Shown here: in pieces, positions 27,470-56,173 of the stretch
Position numbering within the stretch: position 1 is the first letter of the stretch
Layout of the letters: every line of letters starts with the position of its first letter
Source of the DNA: Candidatus Fervidifonticultor quintus
GTDB taxonomy: Bacteria > Sysuimicrobiota > Sysuimicrobiia > Sysuimicrobiales > Humicultoraceae
Direction: 5' to 3'
DNA: 64,000 bases
Assembly: GCA_031459535.1 (NCBI GenBank)
Contig: JAVKIJ010000006.1
Coordinates: forward strand, 1-64,000
Notes under the pieces: generated by a model
The model's database searches: none
What the model was told of the DNA's origin: nothing
The model's input: only the letters and a program-made list of their open reading frames with translations
Made by a program: the position numbers and the translations under genes

Positions 27470-27480
27470 CGCCCGAACCG

Positions 27481-28873: not shown

Positions 28874-28906
28874 GACGCCGGCGGCGCCGGCGACGCGTTC
28901 TCCACC

Positions 28907-29110: not shown

Positions 29111-32100
29111 GTGGCCGAACGAATGGTTCGTGTCGGTGACCGTGTTGCCGTCCGCGACCGACCCTGGCGCGTTGAGGCGGCCAGGGACTTAGGTGGGGGC
29201 AAAACCCTCCTGACGCTCCTTCCTGCCCGTGGCGATGGACTGTCACCGCTGTCCGTTGTCGCCCCACCCGAACGCGTCGTCCCCCTACCCCCGGAAGAGC
29301 TTCGCTTCGACCCCGCCGGGATCGGCCCCGTCGTCCCGTGGCTCCGCGCCCACCAGGCCCTCGCGCTCAAGGCAATCGAAGACGGGCTAACGGCGATTCA
29401 AGAGGGAGCGCTGAGCGGGGCCCGCTTTGGCCGGGTTACCCTCGAGGCCTATCAGATCGCCCCCGTCCTGCGAATCCTGGCCAAGCCGAAGCCACGGCTA
29501 CTCATCGCCGACGATGTTGGCCTTGGCAAGACCATTGAGGCTGGCCTGTGCCTGCTCGAGCTCATGTCCAGACACCGCGCCGATCGGGTCCTCATCGTCG
29601 TTCCTCCTGGGCTCATCGTGCAGTGGCAGGAAGAGATGCTCGATCGCTTCGGCCTCAAGTTCATGGTGATCGAGAACGCCGCCGGACTCGCCCGCGAGCG
29701 GACCGAGTTGCCGGCGGGCGTGAGTCCCTGGGACCTGCCTCAGGTCCGGATCATCACCTCCATGGACTATCTCAAGAAGGACGAGGTCCGACGCCGTGCG
29801 CTGGCCAGGCCCTGGGACGTGGTGATCGTGGACGAGGCCCATGCCCTGGCCGAATCCGGATCACCCCAGAACCCCTACCGGACCCGCCGCACACGCCTGG
29901 GCGAGGACCTCCGCGACCGTTCCCGGGGCCTGCTCCTGCTCACGGCGACCCCGCACAATGGATATTCACACTCCTTCCGGTCGCTGATTGAACTCGTAGA
30001 GCCGACTGCTGCCACCCTCACCGGGCCCCAGACGCGGGACCGGATCGAGCGGGCCATGATCCGGCGCATGAAGCGTCAGATCGTCCGTCCCGACCCGCAG
30101 GATGGCTGGATTCCTGCGTTCCCAAAGCGCACCGTCACGCCCATTCCAGTGATTGTGTCGGCCCGGGAGGCTGAGCTCTTCCGGCTGATTTCTGCCTACT
30201 GCAGTCGGACGGCCAGCGAAGCCAGGGGCGAAGAAGACGAGGAACTGATCTCCTTCGCCATGCAGATCATCAAGAAGCGGGCCATCTCCAGCCGACTTGC
30301 CCTGGTCCGCACGCTGGAGAACCGGCTGCGAGCCCTGAAGAGAGAGGAGGAGCGCGAAGAGAAACCCGAACGGTCCGAACTGCGCGACTATCAGGCCGGG
30401 TTGCCCCTCTCGGACCAGCAGGCGGAACGCATCAGCCGAAGGATCCTCCGCTCCGCCATCCCCAAGGATGAGCGGCGGCGGAAGGCCGAGGTCCGCAAGA
30501 TCACCGAGATCCAACGGCTCCTGGCGAAACTTCCTCCTGCCGATCCCAAGGTGATGGCACTCATCGCGCACCTGCGGGCCGTGCTCGCGGAGGATCCATC
30601 GGCCAAGGTCATCGTCTTCACCGAATACCTCGACACCCTGGAGGCGATCAGGAGTGCGCTTGAGAAAGCAGGCCCGCCCCTCGCCGCCGCCCACGTGGAA
30701 CTCCGCGGCGGGCTCACGATGCGCCAGCGCCAGCAGCGCCAGCAGCGCTTTGAAGCGCCCGATGTGCGCGTGCTGCTGGCGACTGACGCGGCCAGCGAGG
30801 GGCTCAACCTCCAGCGGGCGTGTCACCGCCTGGTCCACTTCGAGCTGCCGTGGAACCCCAACCGCCTGGAGCAGCGCAACGGACGGATCGACCGGTACGG
30901 ACAGGCGCACCCTCCCGACATTCGCTACCTGTACTACCCCGATTCCCCGGAGGATGACGTCCTGGCCCGGCTGGTGAAGAAGATCGAGGAAATGGCCGAG
31001 GCCCGCGTCTCGACCCCCGACGTGCTGGGCGTGGCGCTCGGTCTGGACCTGGAGCGCCGTCTGGTCCAGGTGGACCCCGGAGACCCTGCGGCCGCGGGCC
31101 GCCTGCTCCGTGACTTCGAAGACCGCACTGGCGAGTTCGTGGGCGAGGTTCAGCCCCTACTGCTCCCTTCGGGCGATCCCCGTGACGAGATCCGCCGCGG
31201 TCTGCGGGTCCTGACGCAGGCGGTCCCGCTGCTGGGAGATGACCTGGAACTCGAGCAGTTCCTGCTCGATATCCTGGGCCCGACTGCCGTTCGCCAGAGC
31301 GGTGAAGAGGGCGTCTTTCGCATTGAGGTGCCCCGGGTCTTCCGAGGGCCCGGCGTCGCAGAGCGTTACGAGCGGGCCACAGTCCGCCGGTCCATTGCTG
31401 CGCGCACCCGACCCACGGAAGTGGAATACCTGACACCACTGCATCCTCTCGTTCAGGCCATTGCCGCCGAGGCGCGGCGGCGGTTCATCCAGGTCTATCC
31501 CGACGACCGCGGCCTGCCCCCCAGGCGCCTGGCGGCCCGGAGAATTCCCGCCGTCGAGAGGGCTGGCATTCTCTTCACGTTCTACGGAACCATACAGGGG
31601 CGCGAGGGTGTGATTGAGGAAGCGATCCTCCCGGTCCGTGTGGACCTGAATGGTGCCGTCACCGGCGATCTGGAGACCGACAGCCGCATCCTGCGTGACC
31701 GCAGTCGCCCCGGCGAGGTGTCCGCCGAGTCGCTGGCCCCGTACGGAGAACGCTTCGACAATCTGCTGCGCGCTGCCCGCACGGAGGCCGCCCGGCGGCT
31801 GGCCGCGCGCGCCGAACAGATCCGCACGCACCGGCGCGACCTGGCGGAACGCCTTCGGGTCGACGCCGAAGCCTACCACGCCGACCGGTTGAGGGAGCTG
31901 GAGGAGGAAGAGATCCGCGCCCGCGGGCTCATCAAGGACACCGGCCAGGTCCTGCTCCGCATCGCCGAGGAGCAAGCCCGGTACAGCATCGACGCCAGGC
32001 GGGCGGCGGTGGAGGCGCACCTCAAAGCCCGCCTCGAGGAGATCGAGGCCTTTGCGCAGGTGGATGAGCCCGAGCCTCCTCAGCCGGTGGGCGCCCTCTT

Positions 32101-32122
32101 CCTGGTGCCGGAGGGCCAGTGA
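29111..32122 (+). CDS. SWI2/SNF2 helicase (DrmD-like)
   Basis: LIADDVGLGKT, DEAH, LTATPH, TDAASEGLNLQ and WNPNRLEQRNGRIDRYGQ; C-terminal coiled region. Confidence 0.92.
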   Translation: MAERMVRVGDRVAVRDRPWRVEAARDLGGGKTLLTLLPARGDGLSPLSVVAPPERVVPLPPEELRFDPAGIGPVVPWLRAHQALALKAIEDGLTAIQEGALSGARFGRVTLEAYQIAPVLRILAKPKPRLLIADDVGLGKTIEAGLCLLELMSRHRADRVLIVVPPGLIVQWQEEMLDRFGLKFMVIENAAGLARERTELPAGVSPWDLPQVRIITSMDYLKKDEVRRRALARPWDVVIVDEAHALAESGSPQNPYRTRRTRLGEDLRDRSRGLLLLTATPHNGYSHSFRSLIELVEPTAATLTGPQTRDRIERAMIRRMKRQIVRPDPQDGWIPAFPKRTVTPIPVIVSAREAELFRLISAYCSRTASEARGEEDEELISFAMQIIKKRAISSRLALVRTLENRLRALKREEEREEKPERSELRDYQAGLPLSDQQAERISRRILRSAIPKDERRRKAEVRKITEIQRLLAKLPPADPKVMALIAHLRAVLAEDPSAKVIVFTEYLDTLEAIRSALEKAGPPLAAAHVELRGGLTMRQRQQRQQRFEAPDVRVLLATDAASEGLNLQRACHRLVHFELPWNPNRLEQRNGRIDRYGQAHPPDIRYLYYPDSPEDDVLARLVKKIEEMAEARVSTPDVLGVALGLDLERRLVQVDPGDPAAAGRLLRDFEDRTGEFVGEVQPLLLPSGDPRDEIRRGLRVLTQAVPLLGDDLELEQFLLDILGPTAVRQSGEEGVFRIEVPRVFRGPGVAERYERATVRRSIAARTRPTEVEYLTPLHPLVQAIAAEARRRFIQVYPDDRGLPPRRLAARRIPAVERAGILFTFYGTIQGREGVIEEAILPVRVDLNGAVTGDLETDSRILRDRSRPGEVSAESLAPYGERFDNLLRAARTEAARRLAARAEQIRTHRRDLAERLRVDAEAYHADRLRELEEEEIRARGLIKDTGQVLLRIAEEQARYSIDARRAAVEAHLKARLEEIEAFAQVDEPEPPQPVGALFLVPEGQ

Positions 32123-35100
32123 TGGCGCTCTTCCCCAACCTCCGCAACCGCCAGGGGTTCTTCTCCGACTACTACCTGGGCACCGTGTTCGGCCGGGCGT
32201 CCGGACGTCAGCGCACCCTGGTCACCAGGGAGATCGAGGCGGCCTATCGGACGCTCGGACGTCTGCATGACCGGGCCGAGGGCCGGGCGCTCGATGCACC
32301 GTCCGTGCGGGACATGTTCGCCCGCCCGCTGCTTCGCGACGTCCTGGGTTTTCACGTGGGAGCCGGGGACCGACGCGTCCACCCGCTCTACGCGTCCGCG
32401 GACGACGAGGCGACCGGCCGGCCGCCCCTGCTGCTCGCCTACATCGGGGACTGGGACGAGGACCTCGATGCGGGCAGGAACTCCCCGCACAGGATGTTGG
32501 CCGAGCTCCTCGCCCGAGCGACCGCGGACCTCCGCTACGGCATCCTGGTCACTGGCGAGCGCCTCCGCCTGATCCGCCGCAAGGGCGACGGTCCAGCCGG
32601 CGCCTGCGTGGAACTCGACCTGCCGGCGTGCCTGGAGGCCGGCGACCGCGAGTCCTTTGCCGCCGCCTGGCGGCTGTTCTCGGCCCGAAACTTCACCCCC
32701 GGCCCCAATGGTGAATTGCCCATCCAGGCCATCGAGCGAGAGAGCCGCGAACACGCCGAGAAGGTCTCCGAGGATCTCAAGCGTGCCGTCTTTCAGGCCG
32801 CGGAGACCCTCGTGCAGGCGATCATCGCCGACCGGACCGCGCACGCCGAGGGGCCGAACCGGGATCCTGCCGCCATGTCTCCCGGCGAACTCGAGACCTA
32901 CCGCGACGCCGCCCTGACCTGTCTCTATCGCATCCTGTTCATTCTCTACGCTGAAGCCAGAGATGAGCCGCTGCTCGGCCACGCGCTCTACCGGGACTCC
33001 TACTCGCTGGACGGATTGGTGCGGGAGTTCCTCAATAACCGGATGGTGCCGTCTCCCAACCGGTTCGGTCTTTGGGAGCGCCTGCGGGCATTGTTCGCCA
33101 TCCACCACGGCGGCATGCCTGCCATCAACGGGCTGGAGCGCATTCCCGCACGGGGCGGCGACCTCTTCGACCCGGCAACGCCTCCCGGCCGGTTGCTCGA
33201 GGAAGTGCGGCTGGACGACGCCACGGTGGCCCGCCTGCTCCTCGACCTGGCGACCACGACGGCGCGCCGGGGCGTCGGGTACGAGCGGGTCTCCTTCCGC
33301 GAACTGGACATCGAGCAACTGGGCGCGGTCTACGAGGGTCTGCTGGAATTCGAGCCCAGGATCGCAGGTGGCACCACGTTCGAAGTTCGCGTCCAGGGTC
33401 GCACCTACGCTCTGGCCCCCGCCGAGCTCGTGCGCCTGTGCAGGGAGAAGAAGCTCACCCTCACAGGCGACGCGACGCTGGTCGAGGGTACCGGGGCGGA
33501 GGCCCTGCGCCCGCGGGCCGATCTTGAAGCCACGGAAGACAATTCGAGTGACGATGACGAGGAAGCCTCCGAAGACGAGGATACGGTCGAGGAAGAGAAC
33601 GAGGGCGTGCGGCGCGGCGCGTCGGTCGTGCTTGTGCGCCGACTGGAGCGCGGCCAGTTCCACTTCGTCCCGGGTCCCGGGCGCAAAGGCAGCGGATCGT
33701 TCTACACTCCGCTGCCCCTCGTACAGGACCTCGTCCGCCACGCGCTGGACCCGCTCGTTGAGGGCAAGACGGCCGCCGAGATCGAGTCGCTGCGCGTCCT
33801 CGACCCGGCCTGCGGCAGCGCCCACTTCCTGGTGGAGGCGATGCGCTTCCTGGGCCAGGCGCTGCACCGCGCCTACGTGCGCGAGCACGACGGCAAGGCG
33901 CCCCCGCACTTCCGCGCCACGGGTCGCGGATGGGACGCCGAATGCGAGGCCTCCGACGAAGAGGCACGAGCCTCGGGCTCCGAGGCCCGCGCCTGGTGCA
34001 AGCGACGGATCGCGGAACGGTGCCTGTTCGGCGTGGACCTCAACCCCACGGCGGTCAACCTGGCGCGCGTCTCGCTGTGGATCGAGTCCCTGGCCGGCGA
34101 CCGCCCGCTCACGTACTTCGAGCACCACATCCGCTGCGGCAACTCCATCCTGGGGACGTGGCTCGACCGGCTCGGCTCACCGCCGCTACCGGACCTGGGC
34201 ACTGGCCTGCCTCCGGCCCAGACGGGTCTGTTTGCCGAGAAGGCGAAAGAGCAGATCCGCGAGGCCGCCCGCATCCGCCGTCTCATCGACGTGGCCGCGG
34301 ACGCCGGCGCCGTCGAGCCCGACACCCTCGAGGAGTTGCGGTTCAAGGAAGAGCAGCGCCGTCAGGCCGAGACGCTCCTGGCCGACGCCCGCCTGCTGTT
34401 CGACCTGCGCTCGGCTTCTGCATTCCTCCCCGAGATCTGGGCAGAGCGAGAGGTCCTGCTCGGCCTCCTCGGCGGACCCGGCCGCCTCGCATCCTACGCG
34501 CGCAGCCGCCCCTGGTGGCAGCGCTTCGAGGAGATCAGAGCCCGCGAGCGCTTCTTCCACTGGGGACTGGAGTTTCCGGAGGTGTTCCTCGGGGATGGCG
34601 GGGCCGGTTTCGATGCCGTCCTGGGCAACCCGCCGTGGGACAAGATCAAGCCCGACCGCAAGGAGTTCTACGGCCGCCACGACGTGCTGATCCGCGCCTT
34701 CGTGGGCGGCGAGCTGGACCGGAGGATCCGCGAACTTCAGGTCGAGATCCCTGGGCTGGACGCGGATTTCGAGGCCTACGAGCAGCGGGTGAAGACCATC
34801 GCCGCCTACCTGAAGAAGGGCGGCGACTACCGGTTCCAGGACTGGGAGGTGGACGGCAAGTCCACCGGTGGCGACCCCGACGCCTTCAAGTTCTTTGTCG
34901 AGCGCGCCTGGGGGCTCGTCCGCGAAGGCGGGCGTGTCGGGTTCGTCGTGCCCTCGGCCATCTACAACAACGAGGGCTGCACCGGCCTGCGCCACCTGTT
35001 GTTAGAGGAAGCGCAGGTCGAGCGCTTCTACGCCTTCGAGAACCGGAGGAAGATCTTCCCAATACACGCACAGTACAAGTTTGTCAGCCTCGTCTTCCGC

Positions 35101-36174
35101 AAGGGTCGCCCCGACGGCGACGGCTTTCTGGGCGCCTTCATGCGCCACGACCTCGCCGAACTCGCCGACCCTGCGCCCAAGGACTTCATGGTCCTCGTCC
35201 GCCGTTCCGAACTCGAGCGCCTCTCGCCCGGCACCCTGGCCTTCCTGGAGTACCGCCACCCCCGCGACCGGGAGATCCTGCTCAAGATGTACGGCTACGA
35301 CAAGGACGGCAACCCCGTGAACCCCCGGCCGCTGTTGGGCGACCAGGGGCCTGGGACGTGGAACGCGCGGTTCTACACAGAGTTCCACATGACCAACGAC
35401 CGTGACCTGTGGACCGACCCGAAGACCGGCAAGCTCTACAACCCGCGCCAGATCCTCGGTCCCGTCTCCGGCACCACGACGGAACCGCCCTACTACGACC
35501 CCCGCGCCTGGCCCGAGATCCGCGCCCGCATGGCGGAGAAGGGTTTCTGGCCGCTGTACCAGGATGCGCACATCCACCAGCATGTCTTAGAGTTCAAGCC
35601 CTTCATGCGGTGGGTCAGCCTCGAAGAGCACCGCCGGAAGTATGGTGGCTTGCCGGCGTCTGAACCGAAGTTAGTGCTTCGTGACAGAGGCACGAATACT
35701 CACGAACGCATGGTCGTGGCAGCCGTCCTGCCGCCCCACTCCTGCTTCGGCCACTCCCTGAACGGCATTGAGGTCACGCACGGACTTCTTGATCGGCTCT
35801 GCGCCATTCTGAATACGCTTTCGTTCGACTTCCTTGCACGCCAGAAGAACAGCGGGCTCCATGTGAGCCCTTACATCTTGAAATTCTGCGCGGTGCCTCC
35901 GCCCGTAGCGTTCGAAAGCTTCAGTCGTATTCAGCCAATTCATGCGCCGCATCGAAAAACGTGGATCTATGAGATGCCCGAGTACTGGGAAACGCTGTGG
36001 GCTGTGGAGGAGAGCGTCGGATCAGCCTACGGGCTAGGAGCGGAGGATCTTTTCCACATAGTCGGATCGTTTCCGGTCTTTCAACGAGAGAGGCCCGAGT
36101 TCCACTCCTTTCTTCAAGACCGGATCACCAACCTTATACGTGGAGGCCACCTCCAAGCGGCTACAGGAGGGTAG
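32122..36174 (+). CDS. Large Eco57I/type IIG-like N6-adenine DNA methyltransferase (DrmMI-like)
   Basis: LGAVYEGLLE, GSFYTP, LDPACGSAHF, FGVDLNP and GNPPW; C-terminal target-recognition region. Overlaps the SNF2 stop. Confidence 0.92.
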   Translation: MALFPNLRNRQGFFSDYYLGTVFGRASGRQRTLVTREIEAAYRTLGRLHDRAEGRALDAPSVRDMFARPLLRDVLGFHVGAGDRRVHPLYASADDEATGRPPLLLAYIGDWDEDLDAGRNSPHRMLAELLARATADLRYGILVTGERLRLIRRKGDGPAGACVELDLPACLEAGDRESFAAAWRLFSARNFTPGPNGELPIQAIERESREHAEKVSEDLKRAVFQAAETLVQAIIADRTAHAEGPNRDPAAMSPGELETYRDAALTCLYRILFILYAEARDEPLLGHALYRDSYSLDGLVREFLNNRMVPSPNRFGLWERLRALFAIHHGGMPAINGLERIPARGGDLFDPATPPGRLLEEVRLDDATVARLLLDLATTTARRGVGYERVSFRELDIEQLGAVYEGLLEFEPRIAGGTTFEVRVQGRTYALAPAELVRLCREKKLTLTGDATLVEGTGAEALRPRADLEATEDNSSDDDEEASEDEDTVEEENEGVRRGASVVLVRRLERGQFHFVPGPGRKGSGSFYTPLPLVQDLVRHALDPLVEGKTAAEIESLRVLDPACGSAHFLVEAMRFLGQALHRAYVREHDGKAPPHFRATGRGWDAECEASDEEARASGSEARAWCKRRIAERCLFGVDLNPTAVNLARVSLWIESLAGDRPLTYFEHHIRCGNSILGTWLDRLGSPPLPDLGTGLPPAQTGLFAEKAKEQIREAARIRRLIDVAADAGAVEPDTLEELRFKEEQRRQAETLLADARLLFDLRSASAFLPEIWAEREVLLGLLGGPGRLASYARSRPWWQRFEEIRARERFFHWGLEFPEVFLGDGGAGFDAVLGNPPWDKIKPDRKEFYGRHDVLIRAFVGGELDRRIRELQVEIPGLDADFEAYEQRVKTIAAYLKKGGDYRFQDWEVDGKSTGGDPDAFKFFVERAWGLVREGGRVGFVVPSAIYNNEGCTGLRHLLLEEAQVERFYAFENRRKIFPIHAQYKFVSLVFRKGRPDGDGFLGAFMRHDLAELADPAPKDFMVLVRRSELERLSPGTLAFLEYRHPRDREILLKMYGYDKDGNPVNPRPLLGDQGPGTWNARFYTEFHMTNDRDLWTDPKTGKLYNPRQILGPVSGTTTEPPYYDPRAWPEIRARMAEKGFWPLYQDAHIHQHVLEFKPFMRWVSLEEHRRKYGGLPASEPKLVLRDRGTNTHERMVVAAVLPPHSCFGHSLNGIEVTHGLLDRLCAILNTLSFDFLARQKNSGLHVSPYILKFCAVPPPVAFESFSRIQPIHAPHRKTWIYEMPEYWETLWAVEESVGSAYGLGAEDLFHIVGSFPVFQRERPEFHSFLQDRITNLIRGGHLQAATGG

Positions 36175-36182
36175 AAGAACGG

Positions 36183-38096: not shown

Positions 38097-38235
38097 CTAT
38101 CTTCTGAACAGTGAAGGCGGCGCGAGAACACGTAGAACTCAACGGAGTCGGCCGCTAATGGCCCGAGAGCCGGGGTAGTAGTTGGGCAAGGATCAGCATT
38201 TGGTCACGCCGAGGCGGCTCTTGAACCCGGCGGGT

Positions 38236-43099: not shown

Positions 43100-43108
43100 T
43101 GCGCACCG

Positions 43109-43708: not shown

Positions 43709-43778
43709 CGGTCTCACGCTCCCGCGGAAAGGGAAGGAAGAGGAAAATGAGTTACAGTGGCAAACTGAATTTCCGACC

Positions 43779-46226: not shown

Positions 46227-46235
46227 GACGTCAGC

Positions 46236-49200
46236 ATGACGGTCCATCTCTCTGCGAGGCTGGCATGGCATGATCGGGCGTGGGACGGCCATGTGTGCGA
46301 TGCGCCGAGCCGGAACTCGTCGTGCATCGTCCACCAGGTCATACGGGAGTTCCGTGACGACGCCAGAGAGGATGCGGCGGCCGGGCGCCCGCTGGCGGAG
46401 CTTCATGGCTGGTTGCCTCCGTGCTCACGAGACACAGCAGCATTCGCACCCGTCGGATATAGGGTGACCCATCGTGATCCGCTGGAGCGTGGGGATCTCC
46501 TTCCCGTCGACGAAACGATTCCACCCTACTCTTTCAACCCGGCTCCGTACCGGTGGATGCGCGAGGAGCACTTCCGCGACGTTTGCGAAGCAGAGGGTTT
46601 GAATATCCCGGGCCCGACGAACCCGCGGAAAGAGCGGGGTTGGGTCTCCGAGCCAGACCGGCAGGCCGCGCTTCTTCAGCATTTCTGGGGGAAGCTGGAG
46701 AAGGGGCGCTCCCTCGTGTTCTTCTATGTGAACCAGGGCAACCCGCTCGACGAGACAGCCAGCCGAATCCTGGTCGGCGCCGGTCGGATCGCCGACATGG
46801 GACCACAGCTCTACTTCAGTTCGAGGAGCGGGGCATCAGCTCGATACCCGGTCTGGTCGCGGCGCATCACGCACGCCTGGCCTGAGGAGGGCGTACTCCT
46901 GCCCTATCAGGCGTACTTGAGAAACGGATGGAGCGTATCTGAGATCGTGTGTCGAGTCCCGCCCGGATCCCTCAGCGCCTTTAAGTACGTCGGCGAGCAC
47001 GTGACCGACGACGTCGCCGTGGGCTGTCTTGAGCGGTTGATCCAATCGGTGGAAGCCGTGAAGAAGGCCGGTAAGGTCCCTGGCGACTGGGACCACGCCC
47101 TGGCGTGGCTCAGTCGGGTCCTGGAAGAGGTGTGGAGCGAACGCGGCCCATATCCCGGCCTGGGTCCACTTCTCCACTTCCTCGGCTTTGACCAGGGTAT
47201 GGCATGGATGCGCACCACGCTCGCGCCTCGGATGATGAAGGGCGAAGACGTTTGGCCCGAGGTGAAGACGATACTGGACAGCAAGACAGGGGCGTCGGCA
47301 GCTGCCCCGCCGGGCCTGCGGACCGCTTCGACGAAATGGAAGAAGTTTTCGGCTGCGACCCGCAAGCTACTCGAGACCCTAATTCTGTTTGAGCTCAGCT
47401 CCGATCAGATCGAACGGCTTGCCGATCCCGCCCGACGCAAGGCCAGTGGGGTCATGGCCGATGAGGACGCCATCCGGGACAATCCGTATCTTCTGGCCGA
47501 GCAGGACTGGGGGACACCCAAGTCCGAGACGGTCAGCGTCGACGAAATTGACAGAGGACTCCTCCCCGATGGGGTTGCCCGTACCATCCTGCGGGCGCGG
47601 GGGTACGAACTACCGGCGAACGATGACCCGCGGCGGGTGCGCGCGGTTGCCCTGCAAGTACTGCGAGACGCCGCAGCCGAAGGACACACCCTTCTTTCCC
47701 TCGGTGATCTCCTCACCCGCGTAGAACGCTACTTCCCGGAGCATCGTGTCTGTCGGGTGAACGCAGACCTGTTCAAAGCCGATGCTGACTTCCACCGTGA
47801 GGCACTCGCCCTCCACGTCGATACGACGCCGCCCGTCGTGGCGTTGCCTGAGCTGGAACGATGTGAACGAGAGCTGGCTGAGATCATACGACGGCGGATG
47901 ACGCGGAGCAATCCCCCCTGCCCGCCGGGTTGGTCGTGGGAGCGGCTGCTCGCAGAACGGTTCGACAAAGACGACCAGAAGGCATCCCCCGGTGACGACG
48001 CCGAGCGTCGGGCGCGGGCGGAGAAGGTGCGCGCCCTAGAGATACTCTATGAGAGCAGGTTCAGCGTGCTGGCAGGGCGAGCCGGAACAGGCAAGACCTC
48101 GGTCCTATCGGTGTTTTTAGACGGCCTGGAACAACTCCATGGCAAGCGTGATGTCCTCCTCCTGGCTCCCACCGGCAAGGCCCGTGTCCGCCTTTCGACG
48201 CTGACGAGACGGACCGCGAGCACGATTCACCAATTCCTACTCCGGCAGCGCTGGTTCGATCCGGAATTGTTCCACCTGAAGCAGGAGGGGGGCGAGCAGG
48301 CGGCGGCCCCGACGGTGATCATTGATGAAGCTTCGATGATCCCTATGGACCTGCTGGGTGTCCTCTTCCGTGCGCTGGATCTGAACAAGGTGGAAAGGCT
48401 GGTGTTAGTGGGAGATCCCAACCAGCTGCCGCCCATTGGTCCCGGACGGCCGTTCGTCGACATCATCGCGTGGCTGGAGTCCGACCCTGAGCGCTCGCGG
48501 AGGCTCGCCCGCCTCACTGAACGCGTACGACAGAAAGCCCGCCAGGAAGATAGCCTCGCGCTGCGACTTTCCGACGGCTACCTCAGAGGGCCACCGAACC
48601 CTGGTGACGATGAGATCCTCAGTCTGGTCGCGCGCGGGCAGGCCGGCGGCGACCTGGAGGTGCACTTCTGGCAGGACATGTCTGAATTGCGCACCCTCCT
48701 CTCGGACCGGCTCGAGGCGCTCCTGGGACTCCCGCAGGACGCTACCGATGACAAGGCCCTCAACCGGTCGCTCGGAGGCGACGCGAAGGAATGGCAGCGC
48801 GCTGAAAGCTGGCAGATTCTGTCTCCAACCCGTCAGCAACCCTACGGTACGGACGCCCTGAACCGAGAGATCCAGGCCAAGTACAAGGCCAACCGCTTAC
48901 GGTGGGCACGAGAGTGGGGAGGCCGTTGGTACAATGGCCGACGACAGTGTCGGCCGTTCGGCGAGCAGGAGATTGTCTGGCTCGACAAGGTGATCCAGAT
49001 TGTGAACCGTGCCAGAAAGGCCTGGCCGAGACGCGGGGGCTCGACTACGTTGCAAACGGGGAAGTTGGGCTGGTTGCCAAGACACAGGCGAGTGAAAACG
49101 GTGATTCGCTCGACGTGGCGTTCTCCACGCAACCGGCGGTGACGTACCGATACTATGCCAACGAAGTCGATGACAATCTGGAGCTGGCCTACGCGCTGAC

Positions 49201-49825
49201 AGTCCACAAGGCGCAGGGGAGCGAGTTCGATGTTGTTTTCCTCGTCATTCCCAAGAGTGCCGCCACGCTATCCCGGGAGCTCTTGTATACAGGCCTCACG
49301 CGGTTCCGCCAGAAACTCGTTCTCCTGATCGAAGGCCGCGACACCCGTGTGCTGGAGGCGCTTCGGAATGCGAGAGCCTCTGACACGGTTCTTCGGAACA
49401 CTCACCTCTTTGAGTTGGCCCTTCGCGACGAGACGAGCGACATACCGTACGTACACCACCTGATTCACCGAACACGGAGGGGCGTTCTCGTCAGGTCCAA
49501 GTCAGAGGTCATCGTCGCCGACGTTCTTACTTCCCTCGGCATCAGCTATGACTACGAGCGACCGCTTGCCTCTCCCACAAACCCCCGGGACTTCCGCCTG
49601 CCGGACTTCACCGTGAGCTACGAGGGGGACACTTGGTACTGGGAGCACCTGGGAATGCTCGCGGTGCCGTCCTATCGCGCAGCGTGGGAACGGAAGAAGC
49701 AGTGGTATCAAGAGAACAACTTCTGGGATCGTGTCATCGTTTCGGAGGATGGGGAAGATGGCAGCATTGACGCGGCCGCGATCGAGGCCGTTGCACGGGA
49801 ACGGATTCTCGGTGCAAGTTCCTGA
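46236..49825 (+). pseudogene. RecD-like SF1B helicase with C-terminal PD-(D/E)xK nuclease; one frameshift near 49035
   Basis: ORF 46236-49142 has GRAGTGKT, IDEASM and GDPNQLPPIG. ORF 48902-49825 continues with YALTVHKAQGSEF, LYTGLTR and RSKSE..LPDF..WEHLG. Confidence 0.85.
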
Positions 49826-49977
49826 GTAGCGTCCGTAGGTTGGTGTCATGCCGTGCAGCAAACGGTTTCCTCCGAAGACTTGGCATTCCACCAATGCGTC
49901 TGGAAGCAATTCCAGGGCGTGAGGGCTGCAGATGTTTCGCGTGAGATATTTCGAAACTCGGGTGGCGGGCTAGCTGC

Positions 49978-50106
49978 ATGCTGGCCTCCGCCCCCGCCGC
50001 CGTTCGTCACATCGTCGAGGAATATGAGCGCTTGCTCCGGACCTCTTTCCGGTTCCTCGACCCCCACCTGCGCGATCAGTTCGAGGCCCACCTTCAGCAG
50101 ATGGAT
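49978..50106 (+). pseudogene. 5' fragment of a second allele of the YprA/DUF1998 helicase
   Basis: 36 of 41 residues identical to the N-terminus of 51035-56173. Confidence 0.88.
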
Positions 50107-50332
50107 TGGGGCTTCCTGGCTCAACCTGGTGGAACGGTGGTTCGCCGCCCTCACCGAAAAGCAGCTCCGACGGGGTGTGCACTCGAGCACGCGGGAACTC
50201 GAAGAGGCGATCAAGCGATACCTGGCCATCTCCAACGAACACCCCAGACCCTTCGTGTGGACGAAAACGGCAGACCAGATCTTGACGACCGTGGCAAGGT
50301 TTTATCAACGAATCTCTAACTCAGGACACTAG
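50107..50332 (+). mobile_element. IS630-family transposase 3' remnant with right end
   Basis: ASWLNLVERWF..LRRG..S..EL..N..PRPFVWTKTADQIL..SGH*, ending in CACTAG. Confidence 0.85.
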
Positions 50333-50360
50333 GCCGAGCTGAAAGAGAAGTCCGGGAGAG

Positions 50361-50395
50361 TTGACGAATCGCTCGGTATGAAGTATGGTCATACC
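50361..50395 (+). promoter_or_regulatory. TA promoter with overlapping inverted-repeat operator
   Basis: TTGACG-17-TATGGT; GGTATGA-7-TCATACC. Confidence 0.7.
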
Positions 50396-50411
50396 AGGCG
50401 AGGTGAGGGCA

Positions 50412-50654
50412 ATGGCCCGGTCCAAGGTGGCGATCTCGCTCGATAGGGGCACGCTCAAGCGGCTTGACCGTCTTGTCCGGCAGGCGGTCTTTCCGAACCG
50501 CAGCCAGGCGATCCAGGCCGCGGTGGAAGAGAAGCTGGCGCGGCTGGAGCGACGCCGGCTGGCGCAGGAGTGTGCCAAGCTCGACCCCGCGTTCGAGAAG
50601 GCCCTGGCAGAAGAAGGGATGTCCGAGGTCCTGGCCTCGTGGCCCGAATATTGA
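50412..50654 (+). CDS. CopG/ribbon-helix-helix antitoxin
   Basis: KVAISLD..LDRLV..NRSQAI RHH pattern; overlaps the toxin gene. Confidence 0.88.
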
Positions 50655-50977
50655 GAGGAGAGATCCGGTGGGCCGACCTGAGCCCTGTCCGTGGGCGGGA
50701 GCAGGCCGGGCGACGTCCCGTCCTCATCCTGAGCCACGACGTCTTCAACGAACGCTCGGGCACGGTGATCGCCGTCGCCATTACGAGCCAGCCCCAACGG
50801 GCTGGCTTTCCGCTGACCCTGGAGTTAAAGGCGAAGGGGTTGCCGAAGCAGTCCTGGGCGAAGATCAGCCAGATCCGGACGCTGTCCGTCGAGAGGCTCG
50901 GTGGGCGGATCGGCGAAGCGTCGCCGGAGGAGATCACCCAGATCATCGAAGGCCTCAACGAGATCATCGGGGATTGA
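50639..50977 (+). CDS. mazF: PemK/MazF endoribonuclease toxin
   Basis: [40 protein letters not shown] 50639. Confidence 0.9.
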
Positions 50978-51034
50978 CCGTGGCGACGTGTCTCGATATA
51001 GGCCCTGCCGACTCCGCGTAGTCCGGGGAGAGAC

Positions 51035-54000
51035 GTGAGCACCTCCGCGCCTGCCGCCGTCCGTCACGTCATTGAGGAGTACAAGCGCTTTCTCCGGACC
51101 TCATTTCGCTTCCTCGACCCTCATCTCCGCGACCAGTTCGAGGCCCACCTGCAGCAAATGGACGTCCTGGTGCGTGGGCCGTACGTGACCCTGGCCCGGG
51201 ACTTCGAGCGGGGCGCCCGGTTGAGGGATCTCGTCGAAGAGGGCCTGCTCGCCCCGGAGATCCTGCGCGCCCGCTGGCCCTTCGGCGACGGCGCCCTCCA
51301 CCTACACCAGGATCTCGCCATCCGTGCTGGCGTGGCCGGCCGCCCCTACCTCGTCACCACCGGCACCGGGTCGGGAAAAACCGAAGCGTTCCTCATTCCT
51401 ATCCTCGACCACTGCCTGAAGGCCAACGGCCGCGGTGAGGCTGGCCTCAAGGCCATCTTGCTCTATCCCATGAACGCCCTGGCCAACGACCAGCTGGAGC
51501 GCCTGCGGGCGTTGCTGCGCGAGACGGGGCTGCCGGTGTCCTTCGGGCTTTACGTCCAGCAGGACGCCGAGAAGCTCGACCTCCCCGAGCCGCCGGTGCC
51601 GGAGCTGGAACGTGTGAACCGAGGGCAAATCCGCGCGGAGCCTCCCGACATCCTCTTGACGAACTACAAGATGCTCGAGTACCTGCTCGTGCGAAAGGAG
51701 GACCGCCACCTCTTCACGCCGAGCCTGCGGTTCCTGGTCCTCGACGAGATCCACTCCTATCGGGGGGCCCTCGCCTCCGAGATTGCCTGCTTGATCCGAC
51801 GCCTCAAAGCCCGAGCCGGACTGGCTCCGGGGCGGCTGGTCGGTGTGGGGACCTCGGCCACGGTGGCGGCAGGCGAGGAAGGCATTCGAGCGTTGGCTCG
51901 TTTCGCCACCGCGTTGTTCGGCGAGCCATTCGACCCTGGCGACGTGTTTGCCGAGCGGCTGGCACCACGAGTCGATGCCACGGCCACCCGCTGGGTTCCG
52001 CCCGCCCCTCCTGTGCGGGTCGAGGACATCAGCGGACTCGATGTGGCAAGCGACGACCAGGTCGTGGCCCTGGCGGAGCTGCTGACAGGCAGGCGTGCAC
52101 CTCGAGAGGGCCCTGTCGCCCGGCGGGTCGGGGGACTGTTGGAAGGCAACGCCATCGTGCAGGCGCTCGAACAGATCTTCACTCGACCGAAGACAGTCAT
52201 GGAAGCGGCTGAGGAGCTGGCCAGACTGGTTCCCGAGCGCGCTGAGATCCCGCCGGCCCAGCGAGCGGCTGAAATCGAGGCGTATCTGGTGGTGGGTTCG
52301 GTGGGTTCCGACGAGCACCCGCCGCGCCTCCGGCCCAAGCTCCACACGTTTTTCCACGGCGTCTACGACGTCTACCTGTGCCTGAACCCCGACTGCCGCA
52401 CGCTCGTGCCGCACGGCGAGGCTACCTGCCTCCGGTGTGGTTCGGTCGCCAGGCCGGCGGTGCTGTGCCGCACATGCGGGCAGGACTTCGTCAAGGTTCG
52501 GGCGACAGGCGACTCGGAGCCGCCCGAACCCAGCGCGGAATTCCGCAGCGACGACCGCACGATGTTCCTCACCCCGAAGATCCACGTTTTTGCCGAGCGG
52601 TCCGAAGAGGACGAAGCGGAACTCGAAGAGCTAGATGACGGCCTGGAGGGTACGCATGTCTGCCCCGGCTGTGGCGGCGTCGGTTCCGCGTCCTGCCTCC
52701 GGTGTAATCGAGACACCGTTCCATACCGCCTGCACCGGGGCCCGCTTCACAAGTGTCCGGCCTGTGGCGACACCTATCCGAGGCGTGATGTGGTGACCCC
52801 GCTGTGGAGCGCGACGGCCGCCAGTGTCTCGGTGCTCGCGACCCACCACCTCGACTACCTTGACGGTAACGATCATAAGCTCCTGATCTTTGCGGACAGC
52901 AGGCAAGAGGTCGCCCACCAGGCCGGGTACTCCGCCGACCGACACCGCGCGTTCGCGGTCCGTCATCTCATCGAGGCCGAGGTCAGGGCGGCGGGGCCGG
53001 CCGGCCTGGCCCTGGAGGACATCCCACAGCGCCTCCTCGACGGGTTCCGCAGACTGAGGTTGGTCACCCCGGCGCCGACCAAGGGCGAGCAGGAGAAGTG
53101 GCTGCAGGTCTTCAGTTACGAGGCCGCGGCCGAGTTCTGCCGCTCCACCGGGCGACGGGTCTCTCTGGAGAACCTGGGGCTGGTGGCCGTGGACTACGAG
53201 TTCCTCGATGCCCTGGTGGCCGACCCCCGGTTTGCCGCAGCCGCCTCCGACGCCGGTCTCTCGCCTGAGGAGGGCGGGCGGCTTGTGCGGGCCATGCTCG
53301 ACTTCATGCGTCGGCGGAGGGCGGTATCCTTCGACTTCTTCCAGCGTTACATCGACACCTCGGCTCTTCCCTGGCGCGACCTGGAGCGGGAGCCGTATTC
53401 GTTACGCATTCCGGACCGGGAACTAAATCCCGTGGCGTTCATGCTCGACCGGCCCAAGCATCTCAAGAAGCGTTTTCAGGGCATTGCCAGGGAAGAAGGT
53501 GCGAAGGGACGCCTGCCGGGGTTGCATAGACTGGCTGCACGGGTTATTGGGGATCCCGATGTTGCCGAGTTGTTCTTGCGCCGGGTCGTGGCCATGGCCA
53601 AGGAGCACGGCCTGCTCGAGGTGGTGCGGATCAGGGTGCCGGCCAAGGAGCGCGTGGCGGGAGTAGAGCCTCTCCAGGTGGCGAAGCGGGTCGTCCGCCT
53701 AGTTCCCGCGCAGGCGGGCTGGCGCTGCGTGGCCTGCCAGGAGTGGCGGCCCTACGACTTCCGCGGGTGTCCGTCGCCACGGTGTGAGACCGGAAGGCTG
53801 GAGCCGGCGTCTGCCGATCCGGACCACTACTACGTTCGCTTCTACCGAGGCAGGCCCCAGCGCTTCGCCGTACTCGAACACTCGGCCCAGATTTCCGGCG
53901 ACGATCGCGCCAGGCGCGAGAAGGACTTCAAGGAAAGCCGCCTGGACGTCCTGGTCTGCACGCCGACGCTGGAACTGGGAGTGGATATCGGCCCCCTCCT

Positions 54001-56173
54001 GACGGTCGTGCTCAGGAACGCGCCGCCCATGCCGGCCAACTACCTCCAGCGGGTCGGCCGCGCCGGACGGAGGCTTCGCATCGGATTCGTCTCGACCTTC
54101 TGCGGCCCCGGCCCGCACGACCGCCATGCCTTCGAAAACCCTCCCTGGTTGGTGGCGGGCGAGTTTCGTCCCCCGCACGTCCGGCTCGACAACCGCCGTA
54201 TCGTCGAGCGCCACCTGCGCTCCTTCGTCCTCGAAGAGCTGGATGTCGGACTGCCGAGTCGGATGGCGGACTTCCTCGACGACGTCCGCCATCCGACGAC
54301 CCGAAAGATCGATTGTCTGGACCGGCTCTACCACGAGGTGACCACCAAGCGGGATGCGCTGGTTGATCGCCTGGCCTCGCTGTTCGAGGCGGACCGTGCG
54401 GCGGGACGCGTCAGCGGATTGGACGCTGAGGAGGTCAGGCCCATCGTCGACCGGTTTCGAGAGGATATGGAGCAGGCTTTCGATTCATGGTGGGCACAAG
54501 TCCAGCGCCTCAACGAGGAGTTCCAGCTCTACTCCAAGATCGGATCCACCCAGTACGACAAGCGCAAGGCGGCGGCCCGCCAGCGGGCCTACTTTGAGAT
54601 CACGCAGGACCGCGAGCGCGCCTACTCCCTGAGCTTCCTTGCCGAAGCCGGCCTGCTCCCTTCCTACCAGTTTCCCACCGACACCTTTTCGTTGGATCCA
54701 GGCGTGCAGGACACGCCGACCCTCTTCCGGTCAGCGGCGCTCGCAGTTGAAGAGTTCGCGCCCGGCAACCTCGTCTACGCTAACGGCCACAAGCTCAAGA
54801 CAATCCGCGCCATCTTCGCCGGCAGCTGGACGCCGTACGGCATCGTGGGAGCCAAGACGAACCTCGAGTCGTCGGGGTTGGCCCGCGCGTTCTACTTCTG
54901 TGAGGCCTGCGACATGAGTACGGAAACAGCCCGGAATGAGTGCCCTGTGTGCGGGCAGGCACTGGGCCGTCACACCAACGTGGCCTTCGTCAAGCAGTTC
55001 GAAGCCGAAGACCAAACCCGTATCACGGCCGACGAGGACGTCCGTGAACGCCGCCGCTTCGATATCCGCCAGACGCTTGTGGAGGAGGACGGTGCTAGCG
55101 CGAGGCTCTTCGAATACCCCCTCCTGCCTCTCGAGCACCGCCGGGATGCACGTATCCTGATTACGAACTGGGGCCAGCAAGATCCTAAGAGCGGGGAAGG
55201 AGAGCACTTCTGGATCTGCACGGAGTGCGGTCGCCACCGCCCGTCCGACGACGAGCGGACGAAGCGGTGGGACGAGGACCATGCCCGGATCTGTCCAGGT
55301 CAGTGCGAGGAGCTGATCCTGGGTTACGAGTTCCGCACAGACGCGCTCGTTGTGACCGTCCCCCCGCAGCCGGGGGGATCTCTTTATGACGCAGCCCTTC
55401 TCGCCTCAGCTGCCGAAGCCTTGCTGATTGCCGCAACCGCCTATCTGGAGACCGAGCCCACGGAGATCGCGGCCTTTCCCCGCCGTCTGGGCGAGGGGCA
55501 GCCCGGTCAGGTTGTGCTGTACGAGACGGTTCCTGGAGGTGCCGGTTATCTGGAGGAACTTGCCGCCAACCTGCCCGCGGGCGCGGCGGCCGCCTATCAG
55601 CGCCTGTTCGGCCATGACTGTGCCCGCGCCTGCTATCGGTGCCTCAAGCGCTTTGGCAATCAGCGCTGGCACGGGCTTCTGGACAAGGAGCTCGTCAGAG
55701 GAATGCTGTTCCATCTGATCCACACGGAGCCGGTGATCCCCACCATGCTTCCGGCCGGGAGCGGCGCACGCACCCTTCAGGCCCACCTGGCGGCCCGGCA
55801 GGAAGAGCGTCAGAGAGGTGTCTATCCGAAGGGGCACATCGAAGAAGTCCTGCTGGACGCGCTGCGGACATTTGGCGATGTCCCGAGCCCTGTACGAGAT
55901 TACGAGATCCGCCATCCTGACGGAGCGCTGGTAACGGTCCCTGACTTCACGTGGCCCGACGTCCGCCTTGCGGTCTACTGCGATAGTTATCAGCATCACG
56001 CCGAACGAGAAGTATTGGAGATGGACGCTGCTAAGCGCAACTACCTGCAGCGCGACGGCTGGGTGGTCCTGCAGTATTGGGGGCGAGTCATCTTGAGCAA
56101 GCCGGAACGCTGTGCTGCGGAAATTGTGGACACGTGGCGCCGGAGGAGGAATCGCAGCACATCGCCGGCCTGA
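51035..56173 (+). CDS. YprA-family DExH helicase + Zn ribbons + DUF1998 + DUF559/Vsr-like nuclease fusion
   Basis: TGTGSGKTEAF, YPMNALANDQ, DEIH, TPTLELGVDIG, NYLQRVGRAGRR, YETVPGGAGY..CARACYRCL and PDF..VYCDSYQHH. Confidence 0.9.
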   Translation: MSTSAPAAVRHVIEEYKRFLRTSFRFLDPHLRDQFEAHLQQMDVLVRGPYVTLARDFERGARLRDLVEEGLLAPEILRARWPFGDGALHLHQDLAIRAGVAGRPYLVTTGTGSGKTEAFLIPILDHCLKANGRGEAGLKAILLYPMNALANDQLERLRALLRETGLPVSFGLYVQQDAEKLDLPEPPVPELERVNRGQIRAEPPDILLTNYKMLEYLLVRKEDRHLFTPSLRFLVLDEIHSYRGALASEIACLIRRLKARAGLAPGRLVGVGTSATVAAGEEGIRALARFATALFGEPFDPGDVFAERLAPRVDATATRWVPPAPPVRVEDISGLDVASDDQVVALAELLTGRRAPREGPVARRVGGLLEGNAIVQALEQIFTRPKTVMEAAEELARLVPERAEIPPAQRAAEIEAYLVVGSVGSDEHPPRLRPKLHTFFHGVYDVYLCLNPDCRTLVPHGEATCLRCGSVARPAVLCRTCGQDFVKVRATGDSEPPEPSAEFRSDDRTMFLTPKIHVFAERSEEDEAELEELDDGLEGTHVCPGCGGVGSASCLRCNRDTVPYRLHRGPLHKCPACGDTYPRRDVVTPLWSATAASVSVLATHHLDYLDGNDHKLLIFADSRQEVAHQAGYSADRHRAFAVRHLIEAEVRAAGPAGLALEDIPQRLLDGFRRLRLVTPAPTKGEQEKWLQVFSYEAAAEFCRSTGRRVSLENLGLVAVDYEFLDALVADPRFAAAASDAGLSPEEGGRLVRAMLDFMRRRRAVSFDFFQRYIDTSALPWRDLEREPYSLRIPDRELNPVAFMLDRPKHLKKRFQGIAREEGAKGRLPGLHRLAARVIGDPDVAELFLRRVVAMAKEHGLLEVVRIRVPAKERVAGVEPLQVAKRVVRLVPAQAGWRCVACQEWRPYDFRGCPSPRCETGRLEPASADPDHYYVRFYRGRPQRFAVLEHSAQISGDDRARREKDFKESRLDVLVCTPTLELGVDIGPLLTVVLRNAPPMPANYLQRVGRAGRRLRIGFVSTFCGPGPHDRHAFENPPWLVAGEFRPPHVRLDNRRIVERHLRSFVLEELDVGLPSRMADFLDDVRHPTTRKIDCLDRLYHEVTTKRDALVDRLASLFEADRAAGRVSGLDAEEVRPIVDRFREDMEQAFDSWWAQVQRLNEEFQLYSKIGSTQYDKRKAAARQRAYFEITQDRERAYSLSFLAEAGLLPSYQFPTDTFSLDPGVQDTPTLFRSAALAVEEFAPGNLVYANGHKLKTIRAIFAGSWTPYGIVGAKTNLESSGLARAFYFCEACDMSTETARNECPVCGQALGRHTNVAFVKQFEAEDQTRITADEDVRERRRFDIRQTLVEEDGASARLFEYPLLPLEHRRDARILITNWGQQDPKSGEGEHFWICTECGRHRPSDDERTKRWDEDHARICPGQCEELILGYEFRTDALVVTVPPQPGGSLYDAALLASAAEALLIAATAYLETEPTEIAAFPRRLGEGQPGQVVLYETVPGGAGYLEELAANLPAGAAAAYQRLFGHDCARACYRCLKRFGNQRWHGLLDKELVRGMLFHLIHTEPVIPTMLPAGSGARTLQAHLAARQEERQRGVYPKGHIEEVLLDALRTFGDVPSPVRDYEIRHPDGALVTVPDFTWPDVRLAVYCDSYQHHAEREVLEMDAAKRNYLQRDGWVVLQYWGRVILSKPERCAAEIVDTWRRRRNRSTSPA

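Follow-up and report, generated by a model that had tools for sequence, protein, structure and literature searches.

A 27-kb defence island with a probable ARMADA type I-like core, probably acquired horizontally, in Candidatus Fervidifonticultor quintus

The window analysed here is a stretch of 64,000 nucleotides (positions 1 to 64,000 of JAVKIJ010000006.1) on a high-GC contig of Candidatus Fervidifonticultor quintus, a metagenome-assembled genome of 3.1 Mb in 138 contigs. It contains an unstranded insertion of 27.3 kb (28936-56273), which is probably a defence island acquired horizontally and built on an ARMADA type I-like system, with the core genes in A-B...C order and armC at the far end. 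The name ARMADA dates only from 2025 (Bell et al. 2025, bioRxiv, PMC12458937). Its parts are described there as ArmA, a BrxHII-like SNF2 protein; ArmB, a PglX-like methyltransferase (MTase); and ArmC, a YprA-like helicase with a C-terminal Vsr-type nuclease. Protein families were assigned with Pfam, PADLOC (2.0.0) and NCBIfam, PADLOC 2.0.0 being older than ARMADA. In the following, labels beginning with G denote sampled genomes, L fetched loci or contigs, and X1-X5 public sequencing runs.

The island is an insertion relative to five of five same-genus genomes (G004-G008). DNA searches with window 24004-28935, on the left of the island, and with the right flank, which starts at window about 56257-56274, placed both flanks on one contig in every congener, only 27-39 bp apart, as at positions 40146 and 40177 of G007:C3. 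GC-content was 0.59-0.68 within the island versus about 0.70 outside. Comparison of the island ends revealed no direct repeat longer than 8 nt, ARAGORN found no tRNA anywhere in the window, and no integrase or PLD family was detected among the island open reading frames (ORFs) scanned with Pfam, PADLOC and NCBIfam. An earlier reading of the bare sequence, hereafter the original prediction, had outlined a 27-kb island here and had noted no PLD DrmC, integrase or tRNA; its borders coincide with the real insertion, and the same three features were missing from the scanned ORFs and the window.

Three coupled plus-strand genes occupy the left end of the island. The first (29105-32122) encodes an ArmA-like SNF2 helicase of 1005 aa, also resembling DrmD and BrxHII, with Pfam matches to SNF2-rel_dom and Helicase_C and PADLOC matches to DrmD (8e-134) and to BrxHII (1e-106, residues 100-931). 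The NCBIfam model NF038317 (DISARM_DrmD) was matched over its full length with 473 bits, under the 610-bit cut-off. The second gene (32122-36174) encodes an ArmB-like N6-adenine DNA MTase of about 1350 aa and Eco57I/PglX/DrmMI-like type, which matched Eco57I, N6_Mtase and MmeI_Mtase in Pfam and DrmMI in PADLOC (3e-113); an NPPW motif is readable in its translation. The third (36183-38096) encodes a UvrD/GajB-like superfamily 1 helicase of 637 aa, assigned with Pfam, PADLOC and NCBIfam. The MTase ATG overlaps the SNF2 TGA as TGATG, and uvrD starts with GTG at 36183, 8 nt past the MTase stop, with AGGAGG at 36165. This overlap and spacing therefore mark SNF2-MTase-UvrD as a tight operon.

The right end is occupied by a plus-strand gene (51035-56173) for an ArmC-like YprA-family helicase-nuclease of 1712 aa. 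According to Pfam, the DEAD, Helicase_C and MZB/DUF1998 domains all lie in this one polypeptide. Residues 1636-1699 matched MTES_1575 at E 2.9e-6 with a score under the Pfam cut-off, and DUF559 at E 1.8e-4 with 21.8 bits against a cut-off of 20.6. The C-terminus also matched PDB entry 3hrl, a solved DUF559-type endonuclease-like protein (E 0.004), and the best PDB sequence matches were the large DEAD/DEAH helicases 9tu7 and 9wae and MrfA/YprA (6znp, 1e-19). The translation contains many CxxC pairs, several of them between about residues 445 and 575; for ArmC, a BrxA-like helical insert and a zinc beta-barrel after RecA1 are listed (PMC12458937). The best PADLOC profile was DruE (1e-134), against 2e-19 for DrmA, and a preference for DruE-like over DrmA-like profiles is as described for ARMADA helicases (PMC12458937).

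The distance from uvrD to armC is 12.9 kb and that from armB (end 36174) to armC (start 51035) 14.9 kb; a minus-strand gene and at least nine other ORFs lie between armB and armC. Thus, the gene content was as originally described, with coupled SNF2, MTase and UvrD genes at the left, a YprA/DUF1998-nuclease fusion at the right and about 13 kb between them. All four genes are open over their full length, and their Walker A, DExx and NPPW motifs are intact.

As a reference set, four annotated plasmid ARMADA loci were taken from the top 11 plasmid matches, each with SNF2 and MTase genes as neighbours: Streptomyces NZ_CP108327 and Natrinema NZ_CP100758, which are contiguous (A-B-C-D and A-B-C, respectively), Thermus AP031329 (A-B-C, with B split) and Pseudanabaena NZ_AP017561 (A-(Phd/VapC)-B-(DUF559)-(ParE/RelE-UvrD)-C). 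The window proteins A, B and C are 26-34% identical to their counterparts in these loci (30-34% for ArmA, 26-30% for ArmB). Type I arrays are reported to follow the order C-A-B, or A-B-C in many archaea and cyanobacteria (PMC12458937). The window shares with type I the BrxHII/DrmD-like SNF2 protein, the PglX-like MTase, the YprA-like helicase with one Vsr-type nuclease domain at its end, the length of this helicase (1712 aa) and the translational coupling of armA and armB. Ranked by summed bits in a comparison of five reference sets, the annotated plasmid homologue closest to it was Natrinema, an A-B-C locus. Type I is a contiguous array; in the window, instead, armC is distant, UvrD is coupled to armB, and at least five modules and the opposite-strand gene lie in between.

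All four enzyme classes of ARMADA type II (SNF2, MTase, YprA-nuclease and UvrD) are also present in the window. ArmD, found only in type II, combines a RelE-like domain and a GajB-like UvrD helicase in one protein, and the type II order is strictly A-B-C-D (PMC12458937). In the window, UvrD precedes armC instead of following it and has no RelE-like domain, and ArmC is shorter than the type II protein (1712 aa versus 2267 aa in Streptomyces). The UvrD-helicase domain begins at residue 11 when the ORF is read from 36171, and we therefore assign no N-terminal (RelE-like) domain to the protein. Its similarity to Streptomyces ArmD is restricted to short helicase motifs (E 1e-5). Given this motif-only similarity and the missing N-terminal domain, the UvrD protein is, as judged from its sequence, not an ArmD orthologue. 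The likeness to ARMADA proposed originally therefore holds for SNF2, MTase and YprA, which fit ArmA, ArmB and ArmC rather than DISARM, and fails for UvrD. Comparisons were also made with the Pseudanabaena locus and the Chloroflexota genome G606 (A-x-B-x-D-C), where UvrD lies between armB and armC, as in the window, and toxin-antitoxin or GmrSD genes are likewise inserted inside the array. Unlike the window gene, their UvrD has a ParE/RelE-like N-terminus and abuts armC, and their proteins form a separate lineage.

Other known systems fit less well. Class 1 DISARM has SNF2, adenine MTase and YprA/DUF1998 helicase homologues in common with the window, and a non-canonical form of it would account for the full-length DISARM_DrmD match and the strong DrmD and DrmMI profiles. 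However, class 1 DISARM includes a PLD DrmC and separate DrmA and DrmB, whereas no PLD family was detected in the island ORFs scanned, and helicase, DUF1998 and a Vsr-like nuclease are joined in a single polypeptide; the DrmD score falls short of the NCBIfam cut-off, and DruE far outscores DrmA. The PADLOC check suggested with the original prediction fitted its ARMADA-like reading. DISARM was rejected on these grounds, and we regard a non-canonical class 1 DISARM as extremely unlikely. Druantia type III provides the best PADLOC profiles for the large helicase (DruE) and is characterized by DruH and PLD-type nuclease domains; the window has SNF2 and MTase partners instead. It was rejected because no DruH appeared among the best 25 PADLOC families per protein and the armC C-terminus is Vsr/DUF559-like, not PLD-like. 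BREX was rejected as its defining partners are missing. The SNF2/DUF1156/DUF499 system type, which we take to be the one called Hma, was rejected because neither a DUF1156 methylase nor a DUF499 ATPase was found in the island proteins by Pfam, PADLOC or NCBIfam. DISARM, Druantia III and the SNF2/DUF1156/DUF499 type are accordingly excluded by the lack of their defining parts, and sequence comparison supports a core made of ARMADA parts.

The core genes also occur together elsewhere. Among 401 Actinomycetota genomes, eight had a YprA match (E ≤ 1e-60), and among 401 Chloroflexota genomes 17 had one, at 19 loci; these loci were fetched with up to 20 kb on either side of the YprA gene. Homologues of both SNF2 and MTase stood beside YprA at 4 of 8 Actinomycetota and 7 of 19 Chloroflexota loci (11/27), in line with the original proposal of a common core, and one further locus had a weak SNF2 match alone. 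In Chloroflexota G787, with A, B, a 3.2-kb interval and C in this order, the window proteins scored best for all three genes (434, 532 and 746 bits for A, B and C, against 315, 398 and 541 for the next best reference). At Thermus-type loci the Thermus/Natrinema proteins scored best for A, B and C, and at G606 the Pseudanabaena proteins did. The concordant best match at G787 argues that the split parts share one lineage, and by these scores armA, armB and armC co-vary by lineage.

Several observations weigh against an ARMADA-based island. Given the minus-strand gene and the 12.9 kb between uvrD and armC, the full set of genes cannot be co-transcribed. Within the main text of Bell et al., experimental proof of defence concerns type II (E. 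coli) only, type I being without an experimental test (PMC12458937). Loci of the best 80 UvrD homologues (28-58% identity), examined with their fetched flanks, contained neither YprA nor the window's MTase in any case (0/80; E ≤ 1e-10, at least 80 bits); at E ≤ 1e-3 weak partial matches alone were found, two to YprA and two to the MTase. No A-B-UvrD...C relative was therefore recovered from these 80 neighbourhoods. In addition, no ArmB-like match at E ≤ 1e-30 was found in congeners G004 (84% complete) and G005 (94% complete), which do carry YprA genes, so that the armC lineage may exist without armA and armB, or the assemblies may be incomplete. Finally, the armC genes most similar to that of the window (76-88% aa identity) lie on seven metagenome contigs that contained no SNF2, MTase or UvrD gene, although at 12.5 kb or less they are too short to establish absence.

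These points could be explained by accretion of independent modules. SNF2-MTase-UvrD would then be a self-contained methylation-associated system with DISARM/Hma-like logic, YprA-Vsr would belong separately with the IrrE, PIN-like and MazEF genes described below, and their co-location would reflect the usual clustering of defence genes in islands rather than a split operon. The 12.9-kb separation with an opposite-strand gene in between is in keeping with this explanation, as is the presence of IrrE, the 199-aa PIN-like gene and/or MazEF upstream of YprA in every close relative with enough upstream sequence, while genes further upstream differ among relatives (for example, a SMODS-like nucleotidyltransferase in L098). 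The same applies to the YprA genes of G004 and G005 without an ArmB-like match and to UvrD homologues standing beside SNF2 in DUF1156/DUF499 loci without YprA. On the other hand, the best sampled matches of A, B and C all fall in the single A-B-x-C locus of G787, SNF2 and MTase accompany YprA in 11 of 27 sampled loci of two phyla, every ARMADA gene was required in E. coli (PMC12458937), and the contigs of the relatives are too short for showing absence. Weighing both sides, we consider accretion unlikely, and an ARMADA type I-like core with separated parts remains the preferred interpretation.

The contexts of the UvrD homologues are informative about this gene. SNF2 at 27-34% identity was present at 12 of the 80 loci, and at least four of these (L008, L013, L018 and L028, with UvrD at about 10 kb, 4.9 kb, 5.3 kb and 7.7 kb, respectively) had the order SNF2, small gene(s), UvrD and a protein of ~1000 aa. 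In L008 a ~930-aa protein comes next, and its ~1000- and ~930-aa proteins match the anti-phage-associated DUF1156 and DUF499. That this SNF2/DUF1156/DUF499 system type can include a UvrD may not have been reported before. Because its homologues occur in this different context, SNF2-UvrD-DUF1156-DUF499 without YprA, we read UvrD as an independently recruited accessory helicase. UvrD-family genes were also seen at further positions in ARMADA-like arrays: G169:C1 (L129/L130) has the order C-D-A-B and G685:C6 (L176/L177) the order C-A-B-x-D. With such varied positions, helicase recruitment looks recurrent. No relative was found among viral contigs scanned with the MTase.

Among 94 genomes of the phylum, 6 had a YprA match at E ≤ 1e-50 and 4 an MTase match at E ≤ 1e-30, the window's own genome being included in both counts. 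The insertion site is empty in G004, yet a YprA gene with 93% aa identity lies on another contig of that genome; the G005 gene has 58-60% aa identity. In G004 this gene stands at a contig end (L093, G004:C12:1-8825) and adjoins an AAA_16/TPR (STAND-like) gene, unlike in the window. In three of the fetched contigs (L102:4937-5215, L103:1654-1925 and L104:2266-2543), armC is cut to its first ~64 and last ~42 codons beside MazEF. This internal deletion removes nearly the whole helicase-nuclease gene, and the armC lineage therefore does lose armC. In L100 (2-4489 and 5775-12055), an armC of 76% identity stands ahead of a CBS-domain gene, a gene for a 754-aa protein without a family match and a second YprA-like helicase (31% identity); this arrangement may correspond to a Druantia III-like pair next to ARMADA, a combination reported in E. 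coli.

Within the armB-armC interval, two gene pairs behave as companions of armC. The first comprises a plus-strand gene (41978-43099) for a protein with helix-turn-helix (HTH; XRE) and IrrE/ImmA (Peptidase_M78) domains, RmrA/spr1629-antitoxin-like according to Pfam, PADLOC and NCBIfam, and a plus-strand gene (43109-43708) for a putative PIN-like nuclease of 199 aa (p199), its presumed toxin partner. The second comprises a MazE-type ribbon-helix-helix antitoxin (50385-50654, plus strand; RHH_1, E 1.4e-5) and a MazF/PemK endoribonuclease toxin (50651-50977, plus strand; PemK_toxin, E 2.9e-30). armC is preceded by HTH-IrrE (85-91% aa identity) and the 199-aa protein (75%) in L098 and L099, and by MazEF in L099 and L101-L104. 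As far as homologous neighbourhoods tell, IrrE, the PIN-like gene and MazEF are thus conserved companions of armC in close relatives, not freely exchanged cargo.

The 199-aa protein had no Pfam match and belongs to a small family, with 69 representatives among 1.84 billion at E ≤ 1e-3. Residues D4, E44, E126 and D143/D144 are conserved in 24 sequences. The structure model had a predicted local distance difference test (pLDDT) value of 96.3, and nearly all top Foldseek matches were PIN/VapC proteins, with weak scores (E about 1e-2; template modelling (TM) score 0.42-0.64, target TM 0.58-0.64). Of the two RNase toxins proposed originally, MazF is thus confirmed by its family match, while the 199-aa protein is PIN-like by its conserved acidic residues and fold. 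In the family representative P0121 (554 aa), the PIN-like domain lies at the C-terminus (residues 356-552); this may be a fusion with an IrrE-type partner or a merged gene call. For window positions 50124-50945, covering MazEF, the summed contig depth in X1, X2 and X4 was about 5-15 times that of the neighbouring cassette, so related MazEF sequences are present in many more genomes or copies in these samples.

That neighbouring cassette is a nested insertion of 6.6 kb (43710-50358, unstranded) between the 199-aa gene and MazE. It carries a Hel308-like gene, PDC-S68, a YprA 5' fragment and an IS630 remnant, and it is absent in L101 and L099. In L101, 30 bp follow the end of the 199-aa gene before the MazE upstream region begins, against 6.6 kb in the window (43712 to 50359); in L099 the same two points are about 0.9 kb apart, and the gap is filled by different sequence. 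Contigs that skip the cassette were also found in the sequencing runs: X1 joins 43709 to 50374 (6664 bases) and X4 joins 43707 to 50340 (6632). This junction evidence is weak, because each run provides one contig and the shorter sides measure 31 and 20 letters. It fits coexisting variants without the cassette, which is apparently polymorphic. No direct repeat longer than 8 nt was found at its ends.

The first cassette gene (43779-46226, plus strand) encodes a Hel308/Ski2-like superfamily 2 helicase of 815 aa, assigned with Pfam, PADLOC and NCBIfam. It matched a HamB-like PADLOC profile at 4e-43, with no HamA present, as well as PRK02362 (314 bits) and, weakly, a SWIM-like zinc finger. The second (46236-49825, plus strand) is the PADLOC candidate PDC-S68, a RecD2-like helicase with extra N- and C-terminal domains, identified by PDLC05065. 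These two complete the five helicases of the original prediction, with Walker A and DExx motifs readable in all five translations. PDC-S68 is split into two frames, covering positions 5-969 and then 949-1217 of PDLC05065, with no full-length match in a single frame; the frameshift lies at a run of five G residues (49035-49039). Contigs of X1, X2 and X4 agree with the frameshift, though the assembly may itself derive from these runs, and one X5 contig from another study (depth 2.9) has an extra G that would restore the frame. Pfam gave nothing usable for the PDC-S68 C-terminus. Homologues of PDC-S68 stood alone in the two plasmid contexts inspected, and a two-gene Hel308/PDC-S68 system was dropped as a candidate since neither context had a Hel308-like partner.

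Downstream of PDC-S68 lies the 5' fragment of a second ArmC/YprA gene (49978-50106, plus strand), 43 codons long and 86% identical in amino acids to the resident gene; at the nucleotide level it is about 83-86% identical to the armC 5' ends of relatives. It directly abuts the C-terminal remnant of an IS630-family transposase gene (50107-50332, plus strand), which matched NF033545 at positions 259-295 of 299 (E 1.4e-5). The original prediction had noticed neither of these remnants nor the frameshift. The cassette would be a later arrival, and the 5' end of another armC gene would have come in with it. An IS630 element may then have hit it, and it now carries the frameshift.

Such damage raises the alternative of a decaying remnant, in which the ARMADA parts, separated by insertions, would be nonfunctional while the toxin-antitoxin pairs and possibly single-gene modules remained active. 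The frameshift reproduced in X1, X2 and X4, the IS630 remnant with the truncated armC copy, and the retention of MazEF beside a reduced armC of the first 64 and last 42 codons in L102-L104 are all compatible with decay. Yet the frames of armA, armB, uvrD and armC are open throughout, their Walker A, DExx and NPPW motifs are intact, the tight coupling of armA-armB-uvrD is kept, and other genomes hold 1.4-10 kb of cargo in the same interval with the flanking genes intact. Decay therefore appears quite improbable, and we retain the interpretation of an ARMADA-like core.

Nine other loci with A-B...C order were compared for the armB-armC interval. Extra genes were present in 6-7 of the nine. The interval of G370 measures 10.3 kb and includes DarT, Macro, GmrSD_N, DUF87 and others; that of G787 has two genes, that of G726 GmrSD_N, and that of G606 two genes including GmrSD_N, plus RelE-UvrD. 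The Pseudanabaena interval holds DUF559 and RelE-UvrD, G164 has one 387-aa ORF, and the Thermus locus has small ORFs between the two methylase parts. The Natrinema and Streptomyces loci are contiguous, with no extra genes between armB and armC. By contrast, armA and armB were tightly spaced in 7 of 8 loci where both genes were seen. The extra genes in 6-7 of nine intervals and the absence of the cassette in relatives support reading the interval as a cargo slot. The exchangeable interior of the original prediction is thus borne out for the 6.6-kb cassette and by the varied contents of the nine intervals, which are not invariant, though not for the conserved IrrE, PIN-like and MazEF companions.

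Defence genes nested in other defence operons are known, for example a type IV restriction gene within BREX and PrrC within type I restriction-modification loci. In those cases, as in the window, unrelated defence modules lie within a methylation-associated system; the nest in the window differs in spanning 13 kb, with several modules, one of which is itself a recent insertion. A search of the main text of Bell et al. found no statement on genes lodged between armB and armC, and its supplementary tables may bear on this (PMC12458937). Among the papers listed as mentioning at least two of YprA, ARMADA, ArmC and Druantia, none had a title concerning such genes.

The minus-strand gene of the interval (38236-41994) encodes a 1252-aa protein of a widespread, unannotated family. 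The whole protein had no Pfam, NCBIfam or PDB sequence match, and neither did its first 170 residues in the PDB; Pfam searches with the N-terminal and middle parts gave nothing usable, and the ESM Atlas returned only unnamed or HTH-fused clusters. At least 645 homologues were found across phyla, with 45-59% identity over the full length. Some have an extra N-terminal HTH, and none has a Pfam domain in its body. The AlphaFold model (residues 1-1200, 50 sequences; pLDDT 87.4) contains an N-terminal alpha-beta-beta-beta-alpha-beta domain bearing invariant D53, E73 and K83, a second alpha/beta domain without Walker A, and an alpha-solenoid of ~800 aa from about residue 430. The family consensus likewise contains no Walker A or GxxxxGK[ST] motif.

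By motif and fold, the N-terminal domain of this protein is nuclease-like (PD-(D/E)xK), a lead rather than an assignment. Accordingly, of the three PD-(D/E)xK-type domains proposed originally, that at the armC C-terminus has family-level support, and those at the PDC-S68 C-terminus and the 1252-aa N-terminus are candidates by motif and fold with no Pfam match. The top Foldseek matches were Avs3 and Avs4 (E 1e-7, TM 0.14-0.18), followed by SAMD9 and generic HEAT proteins; a second comparison, with VIA, returned generic HEAT/ARM repeats (Z ≤ 9.4), which is uninformative for helical repeats. Weak co-linear matches to PADLOC PD-Lambda-4_A were obtained for 3 of 8 family members, and PD-lambda-4 has been equated with Avs8 in a 2026 preprint (10.64898/2026.01.04.697583). 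The modelled architecture as a whole recalls Avs proteins but without a P-loop. On plasmids the homologues are stand-alone genes; one had AbiE, a DUF87 protein and a reverse transcriptase as neighbours, and two had ParA/ParB.

A bolder proposal combines these elements. The armB-armC junction of ARMADA systems in A-B-C order would be a general, recurrent landing site where cargo is swapped by recombination via a conserved armC 5' homology arm, with the 43-codon fragment as a scar; ARMADA would serve as a scaffold for building islands from within, and the cargo would include a new type of Avs-like sensor-nuclease defence protein without a P-loop, the 1252-aa family. We put this forward as tentative and, on balance, rather doubtful.

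For the function of the island, ARMADA II serves as a guide. Its armABCD genes are described from E. coli NCTC 12900, ATCC 8739 and EDL933; in E. coli, protection is non-abortive and depends on all four genes as well as on their ATPase and NPPW motifs (PMC12458937, PMC13463889). By analogy with this system and with DISARM/BREX-like parts, ArmB would mark host DNA at an adenine motif, and ArmA and ArmC would act as ATP-driven motors translocating on and unwinding unmarked incoming DNA. The Vsr-type nuclease of ArmC would then cut the unmarked DNA, giving direct, non-abortive defence. The independently recruited UvrD probably fills the role of type II ArmD, and MazEF and the IrrE/PIN-like pair may serve as back-up toxins or confer stability on the island. 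Both the methylation-based discrimination and the joint function of the separated parts are inferred from these analogies.

On the preferred interpretation, the island represents a type I-like ARMADA in which 13 kb of foreign defence genes are tolerated, or perhaps even attracted, between the methylase and the helicase-nuclease. One insertion step can be reconstructed from the absence of the cassette in relatives, the scar of a donor armC and the IS630 remnant. If the interval is a regular exchange site, looking between armB and armC would be a search rule for new defence genes, and the island a case study of defence-island growth. The 1252-aa family and the IrrE/PIN-like pair travelling with armC are candidate phage-defence genes.

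According to Pfam searches of the flanks, the left neighbour of the island is a nuo operon (nuoA/B/C/D) with nuoD/C/B on the minus strand, and the right neighbour is a class-V aminotransferase gene, cysteine-desulfurase-like. Upstream of nuoD/C/B, window positions 14000-22000 display a strong positive AT skew of 0.22-0.34 over long minus-strand ORFs, which are probably the membrane subunits of the nuo operon.

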